Positions 1,239-10,394 of a stretch of 64,000 nucleotides of DNA are shown piece after piece. The stretch lies in assembly GCF_008933605.1 (NCBI RefSeq), contig NZ_WBUS01000001.1, positions 18,939-82,938 of the forward strand, in the 5' to 3' direction. Every line of letters begins with the position of its first letter. Position 1 is the first letter of the stretch. The translations under genes and the position numbers were made by a program. The notes under the pieces are model-generated. The model saw only the letters and a program-made list of their open reading frames with translations, had not been told where the DNA came from and searched no databases. Source of the stretch: Albidovulum sp. Its GTDB lineage: Bacteria > Pseudomonadota > Alphaproteobacteria > Rhodobacterales > Rhodobacteraceae.

Positions 1239-2222
1239 TCAGCGCGCCGCCGCCAGCCGCTTCGCCGCCGAAGTCGCGGCCGCGGGCATCGGCACGGCAA
1301 CGCCGCCGCCGTATTCCGACAGGTCGAGGTAATGCCCCACGATCTTCGCAAGCTCACGGTTGCTGTCATCGAACCGCCCGCGGAACGTCCTTTCCACAAG
1401 GGCTGAGACGGGGTGGTATCCCTTCAGCAGCCACGAGAACGGCGGCCGTCTCAGCACGTAGCCGAAGACGCGGTAGAACCCGTCCGGCGTGGTTCCGATG
1501 CGGATTGTGGGCGCCGGAACGAGCACGCTCTTTTGCAGCTTGTTGATGCGGCGCAGAAGCGGCACGGCATATTCCGGGTAGCTCGGCGCATAGGCCGACC
1601 TGTGCGACGCAAGGACCCCGTCGAAGGATCCGTTGCCGGCGAACTCCGCGAGCCGGCTCGTCGCGCCGTCCATGTCCGTCTTTAGGCTCTCCTGCGTGAT
1701 CACGTGGACGTTCTCGGCGCCGAAGAGTTCCTGATAGAGCTTCACCAGACGGTGATACTCGAAATGCTCCGGCCGGAACCCGTAGAAGCCAAGCTCCGGA
1801 TCCCCTGCGAAGAAGAGTTCGGGGCTCATCGTGCCGCCGCGCAGCAGATACTGCATGTAGACCGACGTCAGGATACGCATCTGCGAACGGATGGAGATCA
1901 GGATCCTCGCATCTGGAGCGATGGCCTTGAGCCGCCGCGCAAAGTCGTCGCTGCCCATGCCGCCGAAGAAAGGATGGCCCGAGAGAATTTCGGACGAGAT
2001 CACCGGGACCTTGCCGGCCGGCACGGCGCGCATGCCCTCCGCGATGACCGCGCGCATCGCTTCGGGGTCGAAGAGAAGCCCATGCGGAGCGACGATATTC
2101 TCCCAGACCTCCCGGTGGCGGGCGATCTGGTGATAGCCGTGCTCATGAACGAAGAGACGTTGCTGCATCCAAGACGTGGCCGTCTTGTGGTAGCCTATAT
2201 GCAGCAAAAGACGAGCCGTCAT
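1239..2222 (-). CDS. sulfotransferase-family protein (putative)
   Basis: 327 aa. The N-terminal LLLHIGYHKTATSWMQ resembles the PAPS 5'-phosphosulfate-binding loop of sulfotransferases. The rest is not recognised. Confidence 0.5.
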   Translation of the reverse strand: MTARLLLHIGYHKTATSWMQQRLFVHEHGYHQIARHREVWENIVAPHGLLFDPEAMRAVIAEGMRAVPAGKVPVISSEILSGHPFFGGMGSDDFARRLKAIAPDARILISIRSQMRILTSVYMQYLLRGGTMSPELFFAGDPELGFYGFRPEHFEYHRLVKLYQELFGAENVHVITQESLKTDMDGATSRLAEFAGNGSFDGVLASHRSAYAPSYPEYAVPLLRRINKLQKSVLVPAPTIRIGTTPDGFYRVFGYVLRRPPFSWLLKGYHPVSALVERTFRGRFDDSNRELAKIVGHYLDLSEYGGGVAVPMPAAATSAAKRLAAAR

Positions 2223-2311
2223 TCGACGCCCTTCCCACGATCAATCAAAACCACTCCCGCCCGACACTGTCCCCCGTGAGGGCGGCGAGGTCAAACGATT
2301 CCGGAAAAACG

Positions 2312-2348
2312 ATTGAAAAAGAAACAATTCCGGCCCGGCAGGGCCGCC
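2312..2348 (-). terminator. rho-independent terminator candidate downstream of the 2365-3354 gene
   Basis: Hairpin cggccc-ggca-gggccg at 2331-2346. On the minus strand it is followed by a T-rich run (plus-strand tgaaaaagaaaca, 2314-2326). Confidence 0.5.
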
Positions 2349-2364
2349 GTTCCCACCCAGGCGA

Positions 2365-3354
2365 TCAGCCGTGGCCGCGGAGGTTCTTCGCGGAGGCCTT
2401 GATCGCCTCGTATTGGCCCGACGGGCGGAAGCGCCACAGATAGTCGGGCAGAACCGCCTCGGCCGGCGTTGGCGTGATCCCGAGATCGGCAAATCCCTTC
2501 GCTCCCGGTGCCACGACGTTGTCGCGGCGGAGCATCTTCACCTGGTCCCCGGTCAGCATCCGGTTGGCGAGGAGCCGCCCGGTCGCAAGGGAACCGAAGT
2601 CGAGCAGAGCGGCCATGATCCGCGCGATCCAGAACGGCAGATTAATCACGAGCCGACGCCGCCCGATGATGCGGAGCATCCTGCTCATCAAGCCTCGGAA
2701 CGTCTCGACGTCCGGACCGCCGAGCTCGTAAGTCCCTGCGGGCACTTCACCGTTCACGGCCTTGACCGCAGCGCGTGCGACGTCGTCCACATAGACCGGC
2801 TGGAATTTCGTGCCTGCGCCGACGACGGGGAGGATCGGACCCAGCCGCGTCATGCCGGCGAAGCGGTTGAAGAACTGGTCCTCGGGCCCGAACATCACTG
2901 ACGGGCGCAGGATCACGGAAGACCGGAACGCGGCCTTCACCGCCGCCGCGCCCGCAGCCTTTGTGCGGGCATAGGCGCTGTCCGACTCCGGATCGGCGCC
3001 GATGGCCGAAACATGGACGAGACGCGCAACGCCGCTCTCGGCCGCGATCCGGGCGATCCGCGCGGCGCCTTCCGCCTGCACGGCCCCGAAATTGTTGCGG
3101 CCGCCCTTGTCGAAGGTGCCGACGCAGTTGACCACCGCATCGGCACCGGCCATGGCGGCCCGGACGGAGGCGTCGTCGCGGATGTTGCAGAGCACCGGCT
3201 CGACCTGGCCCACCGCACCGTAGGGGCGCACGAACAGCGCCTCGTTCGGCCGCCGCACGGCGACACGGATGCGCCAACCCTCCTTGGCGAGCCGCCGGGC
3301 AATGTAACGGCCGAGGAATCCCGAACCGCCGTAGATCGTGACGAGCTTGGACAT
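2365..3354 (-). CDS. NAD(P)-binding complex I NDUFA9-like / NAD-dependent epimerase family protein
   Basis: [22 protein letters not shown] is a Rossmann GxxGxxG motif. Start chosen at ATG 3352-3354; the track ORF extends to 3435 with a non-homologous Arg-rich leader. Confidence 0.8.
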
Positions 3355-3450
3355 GGGCAGGCGCCTCCGCAGATTTCCGGCCCTGATTAGCGCCCCGCGG
3401 CACGGCGAACAAGGCGCGAATGCGCGCGGGGGCAATCCGGCGGCGCCCCG

Positions 3451-3477
3451 TTGACAGGCCCCGGCAGCCGCTATACA
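3451..3477 (+). promoter_or_regulatory. sigma70-like promoter candidate for tRNA-Leu
   Basis: TTGACA at 3451-3456 and TATACA at 3472-3477 (15-nt spacer, or 16-17 nt if the -10 hexamer is shifted). It lies about 20 nt upstream of the tRNA 5' end. Confidence 0.45.
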
Positions 3478-3495
3478 TCGCCCGTCACGACACCT

Positions 3496-3580
3496 GCCCA
3501 GGTGGCGGAATTGGTAGACGCGCTGGTTTCAGGTACCAGTGCCGCAAGGCGTGGAGGTTCGAGTCCTCTTCTGGGCACCA
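3496..3580 (+). tRNA. tRNA-Leu, anticodon CAG, class II with long variable arm, encoded CCA
   Basis: Folded by hand. Acceptor stem is GCCCAGG with tctgggc. Anticodon stem is ctggt/accag, loop ttCAGgt, anticodon at 3530-3532. T arm is ggagg-ttcgagt-cctct. Ends in A-CCA at 3577-3580. Confidence 0.9.
3565..3580 (+). repeat. attL core: direct repeat formed by the tRNA-Leu 3' end
   Basis: cctctTctgggcacca here versus cctctCctgggcacca at 9263-9278, a 15/16 match. Confidence 0.8.
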
Positions 3581-3590
3581 TTACTACCAG

Positions 3591-3633
3591 AAAAGTCCTG
3601 CAATCCTAATGGGTTGCAGGACTTTTGGTTTTT
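3591..3633 (+). terminator. rho-independent terminator for tRNA-Leu, supplied by the element
   Basis: A 13-bp perfect stem, aaaagtcctgcaa (3591-3603) with ttgcaggactttt (3614-3626), followed by ggttttt. Confidence 0.8.
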
Positions 3634-3635
3634 CG

Positions 3636-3680
3636 ATCCACCTTTCCATCCACCCTTGGGCGCTCGTGAAGGTGGATAGA
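3636..3680. repeat. three copies of ATCCACC(C/T)TT (two direct, one inverted) next to attL
   Basis: ATCCACCTTT at 3636-3645 and ATCCACCCTT at 3648-3657, 12 nt start to start. Inverted AAGGTGGAT at 3669-3677. The same motif pair recurs at 9115-9136. Confidence 0.7.
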
Positions 3681-3913
3681 GGCGTTCCTCCCGCCCCGAG
3701 CTACGAGTCCTAGCCCCGGATGTATGGACGGCGGCTTTCGCCCAGCATCGCCTTAGACCGCGTGCAGTGACTCACCCAGGCAGAACTTGTCAGAAGCCTT
3801 GCCTTGGAACATGCGCCCGTGTCCCATCGTAGAGAGGAGGTAGGCCTGAAGAGGGAACGAAGTCTAACGCCCCAAAGCCTAGTGGCATTCGCGCCCTCCA
3901 AGTCTGGCGCGCA

Positions 3914-5128
3914 GTGAAAATCGACTTGCCTTGTCCACTTCGCCGCTGCACTTCTGGGTTGAGGTGTTCGCGGGAGGTTGCTTTGTTGGTTCTTCTGGCA
4001 GTTGTTTCAATGGCCGCTCTGCTTTGGGCTGGGGTCTCGTTGCTTGGGGTTCTTTATCCCTTCAAGCCATTCCACACGCGCAAACGAGCATTGCGGTCCT
4101 TGGGTGGTTCGCTTGCGATATCTATCGCATCTTTGCTTTTTGTCGGTTTCAACGCCGAGTCAAAGCCCAAAGCGGCAAGTGAAGTTGCTGCAACACGGTC
4201 GGCTTCCTCTGCCGAAGTCGCAGTTGAAGAGGATAGGACTGCCGACGCGCCCGTAGAACCCACCGCTTCCCCAGAGCTTGACCAAGCCTCCACCGAGGCG
4301 GAGACATCTGTGCAAATGTCCGCGAATGCTTGCAGTGGCGGCACAGCCTCGCCGGGCGATGTCGTCGCAGTGTCCGGGGAATATGCGCTATATGTAGAGC
4401 CAGACGAAAGCTCCGCTCGGATCAAGAATGAAAAAGCTTCAAAGATACTTGGCGAGGCGCACTATCACCAGATCGACAAGTCAACGACTGTTCGCCGCCT
4501 TTGCGTGAAGGGGGATTGGACAGAGGTTCAGATCGTCACCCCCGAATGGCTGACCTTTGTAAAAGGCTGGGTGCCAAATGCGGCCCTAAGGGGGATAGAG
4601 CACTCGGGAGACGGCGCGCGGGTCTTTGTCGAGGACCACTTTTATTGGGATGACAGCACTTCAAAGTTTAAGGCGGAGATTGTGGCGGTCGTTAACAAGA
4701 TTGCCCGTGAGAACGCAAACTGCCCCAACCCCGACCCCGGCACAGTTTCCAAATCCGCCGACCGAAGTAAGCCAAATGATCCGGTATTTTTCGTCATGTG
4801 CGGGGAAGGGACCGACGTGTTCAATGTGTGGTTCAAGCCGGGCGACGCTTCGGGGGACACAACATTTGAAGCAGTCCTTCCCCTTTCACAAACCGCTGCT
4901 GTCGATGCCTGCGAAGTAGTGGCGAAAAGCGCGGCAACGCACCCATCCACCGTTGATTTTTCGCGCTTCGTGGACCTGTCATACTTCGCGCACAAGAACG
5001 GAAATGTGCGGGTCACTTCGACATTTACCGCAAAGAACGCGCTGAACCTCGAACTGAAGTATGACATCTACTGCTTCTTCGAGGGCAACAAGTTGGTCGA
5101 GCATTCCATCGCCGAAGCGTTGCAGTAG
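3914..5128 (+). CDS. hypothetical membrane-anchored protein with an SH3b-like segment (element cargo)
   Basis: About 404 aa. Two hydrophobic helices (VALLVLLAVVSMAALLWAGVSLLGVLYPF and LGGSLAISIASLLFVGF), then an Ala/Ser/Glu-rich linker. The segment GDVVAVSGEYALYVEPDESS...GDWTEVQIV...KGWVPNAAL resembles a bacterial SH3 domain. The Cys-containing C-terminal domain is unrecognised. The start is uncertain: GTG 3914, or a TTG about 5 nt after GGGAGG near 3972-3977. This gene has the lowest GC sampled in the window. Confidence 0.6.
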   Translation: MKIDLPCPLRRCTSGLRCSREVALLVLLAVVSMAALLWAGVSLLGVLYPFKPFHTRKRALRSLGGSLAISIASLLFVGFNAESKPKAASEVAATRSASSAEVAVEEDRTADAPVEPTASPELDQASTEAETSVQMSANACSGGTASPGDVVAVSGEYALYVEPDESSARIKNEKASKILGEAHYHQIDKSTTVRRLCVKGDWTEVQIVTPEWLTFVKGWVPNAALRGIEHSGDGARVFVEDHFYWDDSTSKFKAEIVAVVNKIARENANCPNPDPGTVSKSADRSKPNDPVFFVMCGEGTDVFNVWFKPGDASGDTTFEAVLPLSQTAAVDACEVVAKSAATHPSTVDFSRFVDLSYFAHKNGNVRVTSTFTAKNALNLELKYDIYCFFEGNKLVEHSIAEALQ

Positions 5129-5201
5129 GACGCAGGTGCCACACGGTTTTGGCTTGGCGACTTGATCCAGCGCCGCTTGCGTATGCAGCGCAGTGCGCTT
5201 T

Positions 5202-6521
5202 TTAGGAGCAGCTAGGGCCTTGGTGCAAGCGAAACCCTTGCAACAGGCGGGCTATCACCGCGCCTTCGGTCGTGGTTGGCGGATCGAAGACATGGGCGTG
5301 CAGGTCGGACAGGAAAGCGTTCTGCCTGCCGTCGAGCCAGAAGCCTGTCAATTCGGCACAGCGGTCAAGGTGGGCGTCCACGTCCCCCGCCGCGCTGAAC
5401 CCGTTGCGAAAGGTCCGCAACGCCTGCCAGATGGCCAAGGCGAAGGTCAGGTCGCCCAGCGTGTCGTCGTCTTCCAGATCGGCCAGCCGCTTTTCCAGCT
5501 TGGACAGGGCAGCTTCGGCAACGCTGATTTCAGGGCTGTCAGGGTCAAAGGCGTAGGACAGAAAGTCCAGAGGTTCCGTTCCCGGCCCCGCATAAACGGC
5601 GGGGCACAGGTTCAGCGGGCCTGCGGGGCAATCGCGCTGGAAATACGCGACCAAGGATTCAATCACCGCTTGCCTTGTGGTAGGGTCTGCGGCGGCAACG
5701 GCGATGTTGTCGGTGCAGATCAGAACCATCGCACCCTCGGGCATGGACATGTCGTTCAACAGCCATGCGAGGATGAGATTGGAAGCTGGCGAGCCTTGCA
5801 GCAGGCCCCGTGGCCCGCTTTCACTGTGAGAGTGCATAGGAATACCAGAGAGGCGTCGATTGGCCGTCGTCCCTTTCTGGGGTTCCCATTCTTCAAACGT
5901 CATGTTGCGCGTATCGAGCGCGCGGCGGATCACCTCCTTTGGCAGTGGCAGTTGATAAAGGCTGTCGGGGTTGATGCTCTGGAAGCAGTCCACGATGTCG
6001 AGCTTCGCAAGATAGGTCTGCCCCGCGTTCTGGGCTTCCTTGAGACGGCGGGCGGCTTCATCGCGGCCCCGACCCGTCACCCCGTAAATATGGTTGTTCG
6101 GCACAAACGCCGCCTTGAGCGCCCCGGCAATCACGTAGTGCACGGCTTTCAAGTCGGGCGGCAGCGCACAGATCGGGCGATAGCCGCCGCTTTTCTTAGA
6201 GTGCTTGTGCCACCGGATGGGCCGGTAGCCCTCGCGCCAAGGGTTTACAGTGGCGGCAAGGGCTTCGGCGGTCTGTCGGTCCGGTTCACCGCGCAATGCC
6301 GCCAGCGCCCCGCAGAAGCGCGCGGCAGCGGCGGAAAGATACTGTCTGATGTAAGGCTGCACCCGCTCCCCGCGCGCCTGCTTTTCACGCAGCCCGTTGG
6401 CCAACTTGGTGCGCGCGGCATGGGCAAGGCCCACCTCGCGCTTCCATTGCTTGGCAGAGGTGGATTTTGCACCCCGTTGCACGGGGCGGAGATTCGGGGC
6501 GGGACGGGGCGTGCCAGTCAT
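5202..6521 (-). CDS. reverse-transcriptase-like protein with a non-canonical active-site motif (CTDN in place of YxDD)
   Basis: 439 aa. Motifs 1/2: KKSGGYRPICALPPDLKAVHYVIAGAL. Motif 3/A: YLAKLDIVDCFQSINPDSL. Motif 4/B: GLLQGSPASNLILAWLLNDM. Motif 5/C position: MVLICTDNIAVAA. Motifs 6/7: PLNLCP...PLDFLSYAF. A helical C-terminal region of about 110 aa follows. I checked the translation against the DNA at 5706-5717. Confidence 0.8.
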   Translation of the reverse strand: MTGTPRPAPNLRPVQRGAKSTSAKQWKREVGLAHAARTKLANGLREKQARGERVQPYIRQYLSAAAARFCGALAALRGEPDRQTAEALAATVNPWREGYRPIRWHKHSKKSGGYRPICALPPDLKAVHYVIAGALKAAFVPNNHIYGVTGRGRDEAARRLKEAQNAGQTYLAKLDIVDCFQSINPDSLYQLPLPKEVIRRALDTRNMTFEEWEPQKGTTANRRLSGIPMHSHSESGPRGLLQGSPASNLILAWLLNDMSMPEGAMVLICTDNIAVAAADPTTRQAVIESLVAYFQRDCPAGPLNLCPAVYAGPGTEPLDFLSYAFDPDSPEISVAEAALSKLEKRLADLEDDDTLGDLTFALAIWQALRTFRNGFSAAGDVDAHLDRCAELTGFWLDGRQNAFLSDLHAHVFDPPTTTEGAVIARLLQGFRLHQGPSCS

Positions 6522-6820
6522 CAGAAAGAACCCCCTGCGACCTTCTCCACCTTCGACAGCAGGACGTAGCGGGCATGGGTGCCGGGATAGGCCCCGCCGT
6601 GCTTCTCCCGCTCGGTCTTGATGATCAGGCCACGGCAGCGCAGCTTGAAAATGTTGCCTGCCCAGCGCGGCGCGGGGTCATCGTAGAACGTGCAACCCGT
6701 TGCACCGCCCCGGATCAGGGCATCCAGCGTGTCACGTTCCCGACCGTGGCGCAGGGAAATAATGAAAGACTGTCCGTCTTGATCGGACACCCGATATTCT
6801 AAGCGCCCCTGATCACGCAT
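6521..6820 (-). CDS. small hypothetical protein, possibly winged-helix DNA-binding, coupled to the RT-like gene
   Basis: 99 aa. Its stop overlaps the RT start by 1 nt (tgatg at 6519-6523), and its start overlaps the alpA-like stop by 8 nt. The segment DALIRGGATGCTFYDDPAPRWAGNIFKLRCRGLIIKTEREKHGGAYPGTHARYVL recalls small winged-helix proteins I remember from alphaproteobacterial mobile elements. That is memory only, not verified. Confidence 0.5.
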   Translation of the reverse strand: MRDQGRLEYRVSDQDGQSFIISLRHGRERDTLDALIRGGATGCTFYDDPAPRWAGNIFKLRCRGLIIKTEREKHGGAYPGTHARYVLLSKVEKVAGGSF

Positions 6821-7073
6821 GGCGGGCCTTCAGGTCGGCAAGGTGGGCTTGAAGCATGGAACCAACCCAGTAGGTGCGCCGCCCGATCCGAAGCGGGCTG
6901 GGCATCAAACCCCCCTTGACCCAGCGCCAGATCGTGGAGTGGCTGACGCCGTAGAGGAAGCAGACCTCCTTGGTGCTGATCAGCTTTTCAACCGGGTATT
7001 TTCCGCCTTCGTTCGGCAGCTTCTGGACTGCCAAGATGGCAGGCTGCGTTTCAGGGATGATAGAAAGTGACAT
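6813..7073 (-). CDS. alpA: AlpA-family (prophage CP4-57-type) HTH regulator / excisionase-like protein
   Basis: LISTKEVCFLYGVSHSTIWRWVKGGLMPSPLRIGRRTYWVGSMLQAHL matches the AlpA/MerR-like HTH pattern. Start chosen at ATG 7071-7073 (86 aa). The track start is a GTG at 7121. Confidence 0.8.
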   Translation of the reverse strand: MSLSIIPETQPAILAVQKLPNEGGKYPVEKLISTKEVCFLYGVSHSTIWRWVKGGLMPSPLRIGRRTYWVGSMLQAHLADLKARHA

Positions 7074-7142
7074 TTCCTGCGACCTCTTGATTCGCGTTGA
7101 GATGTCATTTGATGCCGCCACATGCTGCGGCCAGCATTGGCG

Positions 7143-7901
7143 CTATTCCTTTAGGAATGGGTGCAATGCTTCGCCGTCGGCCCCGCTTTGCACCTCGTTG
7201 CACAGACGGTGAAACCATTGGCTGCGCTCGGCGCGGGCTTTCTGCATCGCCGCGACGAAACTGCGCTTGTGCCATACATTCATCGCGGTGTTCTGTTCGA
7301 GCGTTACGCCCCGTTCATCGACGGCAGGAATGCCCGCCTGTTTGAAAACCTTCTCAATGAGCGCGGATGCGCTCCACCTTAGGTCTTGCCTTGCTGGGGC
7401 GTCCGCATCCGTCGGAATGCCGAAGGTCGGGTTCAGGCCGAACTCGTCAACCAGTTCGTGCGTGAGATGGAAAAGCATGAAATTGCGTTTCCAACTCTTG
7501 GTGGCTGCCTTGGATTTTCGCTTGGGCCGCTTAACCGTTCCATCAAGCACGCCCGATACAAGGTTCCGAAATCCTCGGGGCACCGAGCCTTCTAGGCGAA
7601 CGGATGAGGCGCAGATGTCCATGACCAAATCGAAAACATCCGTGTCGTGCGCCGCCGCAGAGGCCATTTCGGGAACGAATTGCGGCACAAGCCTGTAACG
7701 ACGAACTTCAGACCCATCTTCTGTGGTCACATGGTCCAAAGTAAACGCAACTTCGTAGTAAACCTCCGCCACAGGCCCCCACCAGTCTGGAAAATACTGC
7801 GACATGAACAGCCGTGCGCGGTCCCAGACCAATTCCTCCGCCCTCGGGTCGGGTCCGGGTTTGAAAAACCCCTCTGTCTCTCTCTGCTTGATCTTTGCCA
7901 T
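7143..7901 (-). CDS. hypothetical protein (ORFan by inspection) translationally coupled to the integrase
   Basis: 252 aa from MAKIKQRETEGFF. Its ATG (7899-7901) overlaps the integrase stop by 1 nt (tgatg). No motif recognised. It has a basic patch, KRPKRKSKAATKSWKR. Confidence 0.6.
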   Translation of the reverse strand: MAKIKQRETEGFFKPGPDPRAEELVWDRARLFMSQYFPDWWGPVAEVYYEVAFTLDHVTTEDGSEVRRYRLVPQFVPEMASAAAHDTDVFDLVMDICASSVRLEGSVPRGFRNLVSGVLDGTVKRPKRKSKAATKSWKRNFMLFHLTHELVDEFGLNPTFGIPTDADAPARQDLRWSASALIEKVFKQAGIPAVDERGVTLEQNTAMNVWHKRSFVAAMQKARAERSQWFHRLCNEVQSGADGEALHPFLKE

Positions 7902-9103
7902 CACTGCCCGACGACCAGCTTGACGACCTCGCCCGAGGACTTCCCGGTGACGAAATCGGCCCAACGGTTCGTCAGGGCACGGCGCTGTTCCAAGAAGTCG
8001 GTTCGCAGGTAAGCCTTCACGACTGCGCTTCCAATCGAATGGGCGATGATAGTCTCCGCCACCTGATGCGGGGCGTCAGTGCAATCCGCCAGCCAGACAC
8101 GCAGGCTGCTCCGAAAACCGTGCGGCACGGCGTCAAGGCCGCGCGACTTCATCACCTTCCGCATTGTATTGTCGGAAATAACGGCTGATTTCTTCCCCGA
8201 ACTCGGAAAAAGGTAGCCGTTCCGCTCAAATGCTCGGGCCTGTTCGATGACGCGAAGGGCTTCCGGCGAGAGCGGCACGCGAAACTCGCGTGTTGTATCC
8301 AACCTTCCCTTCACCCCGTCTTCTGGAATGGTCCACACATCGCCGCTGATCTGGTCTTCTCTGATGAACCGGATCGGCTCGGACCTCATCCCGGTCAAGA
8401 TCAACAGGCGAAGCGCCAAGTGCGATATGCTTCCATCGTTCAAGCTCTGATAAAAGTCTGGAACCTCTTGCCACGACATGGCGGGGATGTGCTGCGCCTT
8501 GTGACGCCGCTTGCCCAGCAAAGCCTTCGCCTTGTCTGTCGCGTCGAGGTTCACATTCAGGTTCAACGCAGCGGCGTGCTTCAAGCAGATGCCGATGCGG
8601 TCCATCGCCTTGCGGGCTGTCTCCGCCTTCGTGTGCCAGATCGGGGCGAGGGTGTCGCGAATATCCATCTGGTCGATTTCAGAAACTGGCGTTTTACCCA
8701 GCTTCGGCAGCACATGAAGCTCAAGAGGGCTGAACCACCGCCTCGCTTTGCCATCCCGTTTCAGTTCGGCCTTGCGGCTTTCGAATGCATCGCGGGCAAC
8801 ATCCTCGAACAGGTGCAGGTTTCGAACGGCCTCCTTCCTCTGGCGTTCCCGGTCTTTGATCGGGTCAACGTTTTCGCGGCCCTTAGCGTTGGCCTCCTCT
8901 GCCTTCCGCCGCGCGTCCGCCAGTGAGACGCCGGGGTAAGGACCAAGACCCATTTCCCTCCGTCGCCCGTGAATGGTGAATCGCAGAACCCACTGACCGC
9001 CGCCGTCAGGACGCTTCACAAACCACAACCCGCCGCCGTCGCAATACTTGCCGGGCGCTGCCGCCGCGATACCCTTTGCCGTCAGCCTGTTCTTGGTTCG
9101 CAT
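7901..9103 (-). CDS. int: tyrosine-type site-specific integrase (P4-like, DUF4102-type N-terminal arm-binding domain)
   Basis: The N-terminus LTAKGIAAAAPGKYCDGGGLWFVKRPDGGGQWVLRFTIHGRRREMGLGPYPGVSLADARRKA is typical of P4/CP4-57 integrases. C-terminal catalytic-region residues include HGFRSS and IAHSIG...AYLR. Start chosen at ATG 9101-9103; the track uses TTG at 9115. Confidence 0.9.
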   Translation of the reverse strand: MRTKNRLTAKGIAAAAPGKYCDGGGLWFVKRPDGGGQWVLRFTIHGRRREMGLGPYPGVSLADARRKAEEANAKGRENVDPIKDRERQRKEAVRNLHLFEDVARDAFESRKAELKRDGKARRWFSPLELHVLPKLGKTPVSEIDQMDIRDTLAPIWHTKAETARKAMDRIGICLKHAAALNLNVNLDATDKAKALLGKRRHKAQHIPAMSWQEVPDFYQSLNDGSISHLALRLLILTGMRSEPIRFIREDQISGDVWTIPEDGVKGRLDTTREFRVPLSPEALRVIEQARAFERNGYLFPSSGKKSAVISDNTMRKVMKSRGLDAVPHGFRSSLRVWLADCTDAPHQVAETIIAHSIGSAVVKAYLRTDFLEQRRALTNRWADFVTGKSSGEVVKLVVGQ

Positions 9104-9114
9104 ATCGCTTCTCA

Positions 9115-9136
9115 ATCCACCCTTCTATCCACCTTT
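9115..9136. repeat. two direct copies of ATCCACC(C/T)TT in the integrase leader
   Basis: ATCCACCCTT at 9115-9124 and ATCCACCTTT at 9127-9136, 12 nt start to start, the same spacing as the pair at 3636-3657. They lie 12-33 nt upstream of the int ATG. Confidence 0.7.
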
Positions 9137-9137
9137 T

Positions 9138-9166
9138 ACGATACGCTCTTATGAAACCTTTTGAAA
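9138..9166 (-). promoter_or_regulatory. candidate sigma70-type promoter of the int operon
   Basis: On the minus strand, TTTCAA (rc of 9161-9166), a 17-nt spacer, then TATCGT (rc of 9138-9143). The -35 element overlaps one TGAAAC repeat. The match to consensus is weak. Confidence 0.3.
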
Positions 9167-9240
9167 CACAAAAACATCATATGAAACATGAAGATGCTTG
9201 TTTTCTTGGGGACTTGAAACCCTATGAAACCTAATGAAAT
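9151..9240. repeat. iteron-like array of six (A/T)TGAAA(C/T) motifs between the int promoter and attR
   Basis: Copies start at 9151, 9161, 9181, 9214, 9224 and 9234: ATGAAACC, TTGAAACA, ATGAAACA, TTGAAACC, ATGAAACC, ATGAAAT. Start-to-start spacings are 10, 20, 33, 10 and 10 nt. The segment is AT-rich. Confidence 0.75.
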
Positions 9241-9262
9241 TCGGTGCATTTTCGGTGCCCTG

Positions 9263-9278
9263 CCTCTCCTGGGCACCA
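9263..9278 (+). repeat. attR core: direct repeat of the tRNA-Leu 3' end
   Basis: cctctcctgggcacca is a 15/16 match to 3565-3580. Confidence 0.8.
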
Positions 9279-9280
9279 CA

Positions 9281-9321
9281 GGGCCGCCGGCATCCCGAGT
9301 GATGCGGCGGCCCTTGTCGTT
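9281..9321 (+). terminator. probable original (pre-integration) tRNA-Leu terminator hairpin
   Basis: gggccgccggcatc ... gatgcggcggccc forms a 13-bp stem with one bulge, followed by ttgtcgtt. It begins 3 nt after the attR copy of the tRNA end. Confidence 0.45.
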
Positions 9322-9779
9322 ACAGGGTCCGGCCCACAGATGCCTCTGCCGCAACAATCTGGCCGAAAACACCCGCTTCGTTGCCAAAACCCACCGAGGG
9401 ACTAGCCGAAAAAGACAAGTTCCAGAATCGCCGTCCGTTATGGTTCTCTACACGTGTAAGTGGTGGTCATTGTTAAGAATTCTACGTAAAGTATTTCCAG
9501 CGGATAGCATTTGTTTCCGGACTGACCCCCAATCGTCTCGGGTGGGCGATTGGGGGCAAGTCCGCGAAAGTCGCGCGGGCTGGGGGGCCCCGAGACCAGG
9601 AATGTTGAATCAGAGCGTGGTGGCAAGGTGCCGACGGCCGTCCGATGACCCGGGCGGCCGTTGCGCCTTTGCGCCGCCGGTCGTCGCCGTTCCGGCGTCG
9701 GCATTGAGCCCGGGCGGCAATTGGCCTAACTAGCAGGAAACCCGCGCGGGCAGCTGCCCGCCCGCCCCGCAGAGGCCCC

Positions 9780-10394
9780 ATGACGATACATCTTCACCAG
9801 CACGACCTGCCCGAGGGGCTCGATCTCGGCTCCGTTGTCGCAATCGACACGGAGACGATGGGACTCGATCCGCGGCGCGACCGGCTCTGCGTCGTGCAGC
9901 TTTCCGCGGGCGACGGGGATGCGCACCTTGTGCAGATTGCCAGAGGTCAGGCGAAGGCGCCCAACCTGACGCGGATGCTGGCGGACCCGCAGGTCCTGAA
10001 GCTCTTCCACTTCGGCCGCTTCGACATCGCTGCGCTCAGGGCTGCGTTCGGTGTGACCACGGCCCCGGTCTACTGCACCAAGATCGCCTCGAAGATGGTG
10101 CGCACCTTCACCGACCGGCACGGCCTCAAGTACCTCCTGCAGGAACTCCTGGGCGTCGATGTCTCGAAGCAGCAACAGACTTCCGACTGGGGCGCCGAGG
10201 CGTTGACCGAGGCGCAGCTCGACTACGCCGCCTCCGACGTGCTCTACCTTCACCGGCTCAAGGCCGAACTGGACGCCCGGCTGGAGCGCGAGGGACGCAC
10301 GGGCCTCGCGCAGGCCTGCTTCGACTTCCTGCCCGCGCGCGCCGAGCTCGACCTCATGGGGTGGGGCGACACGGCCGACATCTTTACCCATTGA
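9780..10394 (+). CDS. 3'-5' exonuclease, short RNase D-like (DEDD family)
   Basis: 204 aa. VVAIDTETMGLDPRRDRLCVVQL is an ExoI-type DxE motif, and YAASDVLYLHRL is an ExoIII-type motif. Confidence 0.8.
   Translation: MTIHLHQHDLPEGLDLGSVVAIDTETMGLDPRRDRLCVVQLSAGDGDAHLVQIARGQAKAPNLTRMLADPQVLKLFHFGRFDIAALRAAFGVTTAPVYCTKIASKMVRTFTDRHGLKYLLQELLGVDVSKQQQTSDWGAEALTEAQLDYAASDVLYLHRLKAELDARLEREGRTGLAQACFDFLPARAELDLMGWGDTADIFTH

Follow-up and report, generated by a model that had tools for sequence, protein, structure and literature searches.

Is a reverse transcriptase (RT) that lacks one of its catalytic aspartates the product of a decaying gene, or can such an active site be the normal state of an enzyme family? 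The question is raised by a 64,000-nt stretch of Albidovulum sp. DNA (contig NZ_WBUS01000001.1, positions 18,939 to 82,938; hereafter the window), in which a 439-amino-acid (aa) open reading frame (ORF) encodes an RT-like protein with Cys-Thr-Asp-Asn (C-T-D-N, or CTDN) in the place of the catalytic Y-x-D-D box (YxDD). To our knowledge, nearly all studied RTs keep three active-site aspartates, and G2L5, dismissed as inactive, is the only bacterial class that we know to have been noted earlier without one of them. An earlier interpretation of the window from its letters, referred to below as the sequence-only reading, had offered either recent inactivation or a conserved, functionally distinct active site as the explanation. 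We find that C-T-D-N is the usual form of motif C in a large family of intron-less, group II intron-like RTs encoded in site-specific-recombinase islands of Alphaproteobacteria, and the comparison of relatives indicates that it is almost certainly a conserved, selected state of the motif.

The RT-like gene and its motifs map as follows:

5202..6521, minus strand: RT-like gene, 439 aa (ORF list, Pfam RVT_1, AlphaFold2 model, Foldseek)
6177..6197, minus strand: fingers, K109...R115, RT motifs 1 and 2, with the triphosphate-binding Lys and Arg
5982..6002, minus strand: motif A, L-D-I-V-D-C-F, residues 174-180, with the catalytic Asp D175 and F180 at the steric-gate position; aligns with DMDLEKFF of the GsI-IIC RT, F180 falling on the steric-gate Phe of that enzyme
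5787..5798, minus strand: Q-G-S-P core of motif B (242-245), opposite PQGSP/PQGGP in solved RTs
5706..5717, minus strand: motif C box, C269-T270-D271-N272, replacing Y-x-D-D (sequence, profile alignment to the YADD of solved RTs, family counts)

Membership of the RT superfamily was evident from the Pfam RVT_1 profile, which matched residues 109-291 of the 439-aa ORF (E 7.9e-9; score 35.9 bits, cutoff 29.6), from the fingers and palm motifs 1-7, which occur in order, and from Foldseek matches to many RTs at a probability of 1.00. An N-terminal helical extension (residues ~21-91) is followed by fingers and palm (~100-335) and by a helical thumb (~336-430). The full catalytic triad, consisting of the motif A Asp and both Asp of Y/FxDD, is incomplete; D175 and D271 are present, and the third residue is N272. 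The minus-strand codons of the box are TGC (5717-5715), ACC (5714-5712), GAC (5711-5709) and AAC (5708-5706), in the context GTT CTG ATC TGC ACC GAC AAC ATC GCC GTT (V-L-I-C-T-D-N-I-A-V). We consider the assignment of CTDN to motif C correct because the family profile pairs its l-c-f-D-n with the F/Y-A-D-D of solved RTs (R-F-A-D-D of Cas6-RT-Cas1 and R-Y-A-D-D of both the T.el group II RT and the GsI-IIC RT). The AlphaFold2 model (predicted local distance difference test score 88.6; predicted template modelling score 0.83) has two strands (264-269 and 272-277) joined by a turn at D271/N272, as in a classic motif C hairpin. No alternative YxDD is present in the 439-aa protein, in which the sole other DD lies within L-E-D-D-D-T (~346-351) in the helical thumb.

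Sequence, profile alignment and the confidently modelled hairpin thus agree with the sequence-only reading, which had placed these codons at motif C and the motif A Asp in LDIVDCF (D175, opposite the motif A strand of solved RTs) and had proposed a structure prediction as a check; its reservation that a better alignment might put a canonical YxDD elsewhere falls away. The ORF is intact, as that reading had stated. The start codon overlaps the stop codon of the upstream winged helix-turn-helix (wHTH) gene by one base (TGATG) and is preceded by a G-rich ribosome-binding site, which makes the claimed translational coupling of the RT to the wHTH gene plausible.

A first homologue search returned 43 Rhodobacterales proteins with 35-94% identity, all of which, except the most distant, carry x-x-D-N; D271 is invariant among them and N272 is kept in at least 90%. 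The close homologues (76-94% identity) all read C-[TA]-D-N, and relatives down to ~31% identity are mostly x-x-D-N. A profile search of 1.84 billion cluster representatives then found 1,465 relatives with E<=1e-3, of which 800 reached E<=1e-10 and 158 reached E<=1e-30 (50% identity clusters). When 184 relatives were aligned to the family profile, giving per-position counts for 172-178 sequences, the position of the second motif C Asp (272) was N in 129, D in 41, S in one and E in one (n=172). The first motif C Asp, D271, is D in 172/172, and the motif A Asp, D175, in 178/178. Conservation extends to the fingers (R115 is R in 171/172; K109 is K in 152 and R in 16, hence K or R in 168/172), the steric gate at position 180 (F or Y in 175/177), motif B (Q242 is Q in 149/174 and the following residue G in 173/174) and the LGY primer grip (Gly322 is G in 154/172 and Tyr323 is Y in 156/172). 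A neighbour-joining tree built from 162 near-full RT cores required ~14 changes between D and N at position 272 by parsimony; the tree is rough and the count approximate. The ratio of nonsynonymous to synonymous substitution rates (dN/dS) was 0.26-0.36 overall and 0.19-0.29 in the RT core for the window RT and those of its close relatives L001 and L002 (L numbers denote comparison loci), reflecting purifying selection. An alignment of homologues and a dN/dS estimate had been named by the sequence-only reading as ways to decide the matter; the alignment shows a state that is far from unique to this copy, and the dN/dS speaks for its maintenance.

Recent inactivation, by which the gene would be a degenerating copy of a YADD RT gene, is refuted by the alignment of homologues and extremely improbable in view of all these data. 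It had been suggested by the fact that the three deviant codons are all single transitions from TAC GCC GAC GAC; the arithmetic is right, but the remark is uninformative because the state is old and shared across the family. This copy also departs from its closest relatives in its C-terminal 10-20 residues, as might be expected of decay, but this divergence falls at a cargo recombination junction at ~5225 (see below). In addition to the shared C-T-D-N or C-A-D-N box of every close homologue, the intact, coupled ORF and the low dN/dS, the homologues are not copies of one dead element, as they span 31-94% identity and several genera.

To which class of RT does the family belong? The top Foldseek matches in the PDB were the group II RTs GsI-IIC and T.el4h together with the G2L4 RT, over ~385-420 columns that include the thumb, while diversity-generating retroelement, retron and DRT RTs ranked after the group II-type RTs. 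The sequence-only reading had likened the protein to both group II intron and retron RTs; the first likeness stands, and the second is weaker by both profile and Foldseek matches. The window RT shares its fold over fingers, palm and thumb with the group II intron RTs GsI-IIC (6ar1) and T.el4h (6me0), as well as an RT0-like extension at the N-terminus and a segment resembling RT3a (LPLPKEVIRRAL against IPLDKEVLRKWL) that is close to the T.el RT. It differs from them in having neither an intron RNA nor a DNA-binding/endonuclease (D/En) domain, and in its CTDN, not YADD, motif C. An Rfam E-value scan of 3300-9900 gave no group II intron RNA, only a tRNA, and the group II equivalog TIGR04416 scored 13.4 bits against a cutoff of 300. 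A group II intron maturase was rejected on these two results and on the packing of the gene among overlapping protein genes. A retron RT was also rejected (NF038233, 15 bits against 235; PADLOC retron models, E >=0.007; no adjoining non-coding gap and no Rfam match), as was a member of the UG/Abi/DRT classes (DRT1-10, AbiA/K/P2), for which the best UG match to the window RT had an E of 0.0026-0.013 over 40-60 residues; for the most distant relatives the best match was to UG4, at 72 bits. Scans of the RT and its neighbours against PADLOC, NCBIfam, Pfam and PHROGs gave generic RT, HTH (helix-turn-helix) and integrase matches only, and the best library matches of the window RT itself were generic RT models at E 1e-6.

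Two earlier described classes come closest. G2L5 (Simon and Zimmerly, 2008; PMC2602772) shares with the window family the conserved change of DD to DN in the motif 5/C box. Three Planctomycetes proteins that bear a ~500-aa N-terminal extension served to define it (PMC2602772), and it was not a robust group in later work (PMC4244168). By this description it differs from the window RT, which is 439 aa in total, has ~100 aa before the RT domain and thus lacks the ~500-aa extension, and comes from integrase islands of Alphaproteobacteria. The G2L4 RT (PDB 9d4s/9d5x; PMC11761039), among the best structural matches, is likewise a domesticated, intron-less group II-like RT, and its motif C also deviates family-wide, with YIDD for YADD (PMC4244168). 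Unlike the window RT, to which it is ~15-17% identical, G2L4 keeps both Asp and is a chromosomal double-strand-break repair gene, not an island backbone gene. DRT3 was considered as a further precedent for a deviant motif C and rejected, as both DRT3 RTs have YVDD. Literature searches on YxDN motifs and on RTs within AlpA satellites gave nothing relevant. The window RT is best described as a member of a group II-like (G2L-type) family without a name. G2L5 is an earlier recorded example of a DD to DN class, and the phenomenon as such is therefore not new; the alphaproteobacterial family, its toggling between D and N, its slot in an island backbone in place of primase and helicase, and its linked palindrome (the last two described below) appear to be undescribed in the searched libraries and literature.

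The RT gene is part of a 5.7-kb island (~3565-9278), a span that follows from the attachment-site (att) cores, as attR repeats the 3´ end of a tRNA gene. The other features of the island are:

3496..3580, plus strand: tRNA-Leu(CAG) (ARAGORN, Rfam)
3565-3580, plus strand: attL core CCTCTTCTGGGCACCA, the 3´ end of the tRNA (direct repeat D7)
3914..5128, plus strand: orf404, cargo gene, convergent with the RT gene; predicted N-terminal membrane helices, low-complexity linker and C-terminal domain
6521..6820, minus strand: wHTH gene, 99 aa (Pfam HTH_91, E 5.7e-29)
6813..7121, minus strand: AlpA/excisionase-type HTH gene (alpA), 102 aa (Pfam HTH_17, Phage_AlpA; PHROG excisionase/regulator families)
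7143..7964, minus strand: orf273, backbone gene between int and alpA, 97% identical in L001
7901..9115, minus strand: P4-type tyrosine integrase gene (int), 404 aa (Pfam Arm-DNA-bind_3, Phage_int_M, Phage_integrase)
9263..9278, plus strand: attR core CCTCTCCTGGGCACCA, repeat of the last 16 nt of the tRNA with one mismatch (direct repeat D7)

The genes int, orf273, alpA, wHTH and RT are tightly packed or overlapping on the minus strand, and the GC content is 55-62% inside the island against 66-70% outside. The island of L001, a Tabrizicola metagenome-assembled genome, is 94.9% identical from attR at 9278, where the homology stops exactly, to position 5225, 23 nt before the RT stop codon, whereas the chromosomal flanks are ~72% identical. 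Past 5225, the place of orf404 is taken in L001 by a 149-aa gene and a type III restriction-modification (R-M) system. The difference between island and flanks and the break at 5225 show that the island has recently been transferred horizontally and that the 3´ end of the RT gene is a cargo junction, and the RT is the last backbone gene before the exchangeable cargo. The C-terminus of the window RT (5202-5235) ends ...GFRLHQGPSCS and those of the closest relatives end ...GFRLPKHRNNNCVNATKSAE; the last ~8 RT codons are chimeric, as the divergence begins where the homology to L001 and L002 stops (5225).

The same position of the RT recurred among its relatives. In 20 genome loci and several from metagenomes, a P4-type integrase and AlpA are encoded upstream of the RT. 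Sphingomonadales and more distant relatives have the RT gene beside genes of a DUF6538-type integrase, of a resolvase and of an XRE regulator, and a recombinase adjoins the RT in most loci with sufficient flank. In L002 (Gemmobacter aquatilis) only the wHTH-RT block is close to the window (89.6% DNA identity over 5225-6768) and the int-alpA module is another one; the wHTH and RT genes are thus exchanged together as one block. The cargo 3´ of the RT is a type III R-M system in L001, L002 and L008, and ThsB-TIR with an XhoI/Eco57I R-M system in L024 and L025; in L027 the RT gene has type I R-M genes just upstream of it. No relatives of the RT were found in IMG/VR contigs, PLSDB plasmids or GenBank phages. 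The wHTH gene accompanies the RT only in the window, L001, L002, L008 and L038, and was therefore rejected as a universal partner. A ~94-aa protein with the motif F-R-[VI]-I-x-C-[KR]-D-x-I-Q-W-I-I-Q ... W-x-A replaces or accompanies it upstream of the RT in most other clades (L004, L006, L008, L009, L011, L012, L016, L019, L021 and L024); it matched no Pfam or PHROG family and no plasmid, and had no homology to the wHTH protein by hhalign.

Besides the RT, a palindrome, (T)TGCAAC-NN-GTTGCA(A), marks these islands. It occurs three times in the 64 kb of the window (0.09 expected), all within the island:

7189..7202: copy A, TGCACCTCGTTGCA, one mismatch, 68 nt upstream of the alpA start
6691..6704: copy B, TGCAACCCGTTGCA, perfect, inside the wHTH gene, read A-T-G-C
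6468..6481: copy C, TGCACCCCGTTGCA, one mismatch, inside RT codons 14-18 (V-Q-R-G-A)

Copy B is conserved in L001, L002, L008 and L038, and the position of copy C (+40 nt from the RT start) is also occupied in L001-L004, L008, L009 and L021. The RT loci together hold 79 copies with at most one mismatch, and in almost every one a palindrome lies within -300..+40 nt of the RT start, often exactly at +40; the RT-less wHTH islands (63 kb) have one imperfect copy. Between the window island and those of Sphingomonadales, nothing but the RT gene and the palindrome is shared. Since the palindrome is read in different frames in the two genes, Q-x-V-A in the RT and A-T-G-C in the wHTH gene, the constraint lies on the nucleic acid, and the apparently conserved Q-x-V-A peptide in the disordered N-terminus of the RT is, as judged from these frames, the palindrome site itself. 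The half-sites show no compensatory changes, single mismatches being left uncompensated, which suggests a double-stranded DNA operator rather than an RNA hairpin.

What, then, could the RT do in such an island? HTH_91 homologues outside the RT clade, 50-57% identical, lie directly upstream of replication genes at four loci:

L033, 4920-7788 (Paracoccus versutus pTAV4): HTH_91, then DUF7146-Toprim_3 primase and DUF3987 helicase
L035, 1702-4482 (metagenome): HTH_91, then DUF7146-Toprim_3 primase and DUF3987 helicase
L031, 5935-8416 (Microvirga plasmid): HTH_91, then Toprim and AAA_25
L032, 5001-7128 (Shinella): HTH_91, then DnaB-like helicase

The HTH_91 protein thus looks like an accessory protein of a replication module. 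No Toprim, DUF3987, DnaB or AAA_25 homologues were found in the window or in any RT-bearing locus, and since HTH_91 precedes primase and helicase genes elsewhere, the RT appears to fill the slot that related islands give to primase and helicase. [quoted passage not shown] Like these, the window island is small and tRNA-integrated, with a P4-type integrase and an AlpA-type regulator at one end and att repeats at the tRNA; it has one enzymatic gene in the replication slot followed by exchangeable defence cargo, and at 5.7 kb it has the size of a minimalist satellite. It differs in that satellites encode a primase or primase-helicase (pri-rep, alpha), whereas here neither a primase or replicase of that kind nor an origin was identified and the RT holds the position. 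It also differs in lacking packaging or capsid-redirecting genes, no such families being found among the six island genes in Pfam and PHROG scans, and in having no known helper and no copy in the viral contigs searched.

Any such role depends on whether a D-N active site can still work. The nearest precedent is the Ty1 RT, in which replacing the second D of YXDD by N (D211N) kept processive polymerisation, with the polymerisation rate constant (kpol) reduced 223-fold, the dissociation constant (Kd) for deoxynucleoside triphosphates (dNTPs) unchanged and Mn2+ preferred, whereas D to E at the same position, or changes at the other two Asp, abolished activity (PMC2148107). This is the identical chemical change to that of the window family. 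The cases differ in that D211N is an engineered mutant of a eukaryotic long terminal repeat retrotransposon RT that is non-functional in vivo, while the window state is natural and selected. The pattern within the family seems to mirror Ty1, as position 272 holds only D or N apart from two singletons (S and E) and the other two Asp are fixed. Right-hand polymerases active with Asn for the second Asp also occur in nature: the Mononegavirales L protein and birnavirus VP1 have G-D-N or A-D-N as motif C. These are RNA-dependent RNA polymerases and only distantly related to RTs. Within the family itself, the YADD members L016, L019 and L024 and the xxDN members have a common int-alpA-small gene-RT-cargo context and common palindromes, and evidently the DD and DN forms do the same job, as their contexts and palindromes are identical.

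On balance we lean towards the window-family enzyme being still catalytic, as a slow, dNTP-adding enzyme. Of the sequence-only reading's conserved, functionally distinct active site, the conservation holds, and among the options it listed altered catalysis is favoured over lost catalysis because the other dNTP-binding and catalytic residues are invariant, position 272 is limited to D/N and Ty1 D211N provides a precedent. The enzyme would be a nucleotidyl transferase with two carboxylates and an amide, slow and Mn2+-favouring as Ty1 D211N is, and its F/Y steric gate makes the dNTP specificity of an RT probable. Several points weigh against this. RTs of the human immunodeficiency virus type tolerate no change at this Asp, and retroviral RTs are inactivated by a change at any of the three Asp (PMC2148107). 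The motif D Lys is lost in the window clade (GPLNLC, compared with GPxxLK in distant members), and K is present there in 14/39 DD members against 12/125 DN members. The residue that opens the box in the window clade is Cys, not Tyr or Phe. With the Lys gone and Cys before the D-N, catalysis may be very weak or absent in the window clade.

The same observations favour a non-polymerising RT-fold pseudo-enzyme, a nucleic-acid (perhaps nucleotide) binder or regulator acting, for instance, at the island palindromes. Simon and Zimmerly took the DD to DN change of G2L5 as a loss of polymerase activity (PMC2602772), and a binder would fit with the way in which the RT and the strictly conserved palindrome travel together over two unrelated island backbones, with the RT as the sole common gene. 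We nevertheless consider this unlikely. A pure binder needs no invariant K109, R115, D175, F/Y180, Q242 and D271 over more than 170 clusters (50% identity), nor would position 272 be expected to stay without drift at D or N, the substitution that goes with catalysis in Ty1; the repeated reversion between N and D, with both forms in the same contexts, likewise argues for one and the same job. A catalytic RT could also be an anti-phage (Abi/DRT-like) module that would form, with the small partner upstream of it, the first and commonest defence cargo of these islands, making a DNA product upon infection and taking no part in island replication. The majority of studied free-standing prokaryotic RTs are defence genes (PMC8632793, PMC9226505) and ~25% of G2L RTs lie near defence systems (PMC8632793). 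Here too, R-M and TIR genes follow the RT directly or, in L027, precede it, the wHTH-RT cassette moves between islands with different int-alpA modules, and distant members are weakly similar to the PADLOC UG4, UG17 and Drt3a models. Against this, no PADLOC or NCBIfam defence model claims the window RT, its position beside alpA is fixed while the cargo behind it varies, and it is absent from the phages, plasmids and viral contigs searched, in which AbiP2 and UG2 are common (PMC9226505). Beside the window RT there is neither a gap of the size of a non-coding RNA nor an Rfam match, and no consistently linked effector gene was found. A defence function is thus possible but doubtful.

Returning to a catalytic enzyme that serves the island, the proposed sequence of events would begin with AlpA-driven excision, after which the RT would take the replication or priming slot of the excised island, possibly via recognition of the palindromes. 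The weakest step is this role for the island itself, in which the RT would be neither a retroelement nor a stand-alone defence gene. We put forward only tentatively the whole chain, from a selected DN site through retained catalysis to island replication or priming, and the replication or priming role taken by itself is uncertain, leaning to unlikely. The argument from the replication slot uses four RT-less wHTH loci, and the wHTH gene is found with only part of the RT family, other clades having the unrelated 94-aa partner. One further wHTH locus, L034 (Sinorhizobium), has int, a 280-aa gene, alpA, wHTH and then unrelated small genes, with neither RT nor replication genes. An RT has no helicase activity and is not known to act as a primase, and no island origin was identified. 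As to the palindrome, a metagenome scan for two copies 15-45 nt apart gave at least 120 loci, with this RT in none among the matches listed, which says no more than that the palindrome is not confined to these islands. Since it is also found in unrelated metagenomic settings that lack the RT, a host factor could be the binder.

More speculative still, and distinctly improbable, is the idea that an RT-like polymerase replaced the primase-helicase as the replicase or priming enzyme of a minimalist, satellite-like island, with synthesis starting at the palindromes from a site that toggles between DD and DN. The RT, with its wHTH or 94-aa partner, would recognise the palindromes, one of which lies at its own 5´ end, and start DNA synthesis there, a parallel to group II RTs, which bind DIVa at the start codon of their own gene. 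In the extreme version, the island would be a bacterial element of a DIRS-like or retroplasmid-like kind, making copies from a transcript of the island.

Whichever reading holds, a large family (158 clusters at E<=1e-30, 800 at E<=1e-10) that toggles between DD and DN with its other catalytic residues frozen is a natural experiment, in which the second Asp is dispensable, or tunable, for whatever product this enzyme makes. The family is missing from current defence and annotation profile libraries and occupies a fixed backbone slot in mobile islands by which restriction and TIR defence systems are carried from one alphaproteobacterium to another. If active, it would represent new RT chemistry and possibly a new replication route for small islands; if inactive, it would be a bacterial counterpart of RT-fold pseudo-enzymes such as Prp8.

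Several smaller observations concern the island and its relatives. Among the matches listed, the metagenomic palindrome-pair loci are mostly 10-nt tandem repeats, arrays with a period of ~59 nt and an unrelated operator-like pair. A recurrent pair, TATGCAACCAGTTGCATA and TATGCAACTGGTTGCATA separated by ~26 nt, was seen in many unrelated contigs (L041, L073, L076-L078, L083, L086, L089 and others) and looks like the operator pair of a widespread regulator that uses the half-site of the island palindrome. The backbone gene orf273 had no family match in Pfam, PADLOC, NCBIfam or PHROG scans; proteins of 235-280 aa fill its position in L002, L034 and L038, no similarity to it was found in L002, and it is also dissimilar to the 270-aa proteins of L021 and L024. 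The C-terminal domain of orf404 weakly matched the phage family phrog_29597, and its N-terminus is weakly similar to ORFs 3´ of the RT in L003, L011 and L012. Short repeats lie beside the att cores:

3632-3657, 3669-3685, 9119-9136; 9150-9166, 9213-9239: short repeats beside the att cores

They comprise TTCGATCCACCTTT-like repeats, with two direct copies by attL, one by attR and a further one inverted, as well as TATGAAACC..TGAAA, with three copies by attR, and probably correspond to arm-type sites of the integrase or to excisionase sites. A ~205-227-aa protein without a Pfam or PHROG match (motif R-[IV]-R-L-S-x-x-F-[FWY]-x-R-[DE]-F-L-H-S-E-I) lies beside the RT in L008, L013, L015, L021 and L027, on both island backbones. 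In L018 (5344-6867), the arm-binding N-terminus of an integrase is fused, in one 507-aa ORF, with the C-terminal two thirds of the RT (YSDN); this ORF is probably the deletion remnant of an int...RT island. The metagenome contig L038 has a second, different RVT_1 gene (1857-3368; 503 aa), outside the island and upstream of the integrase, which may be a group II intron.

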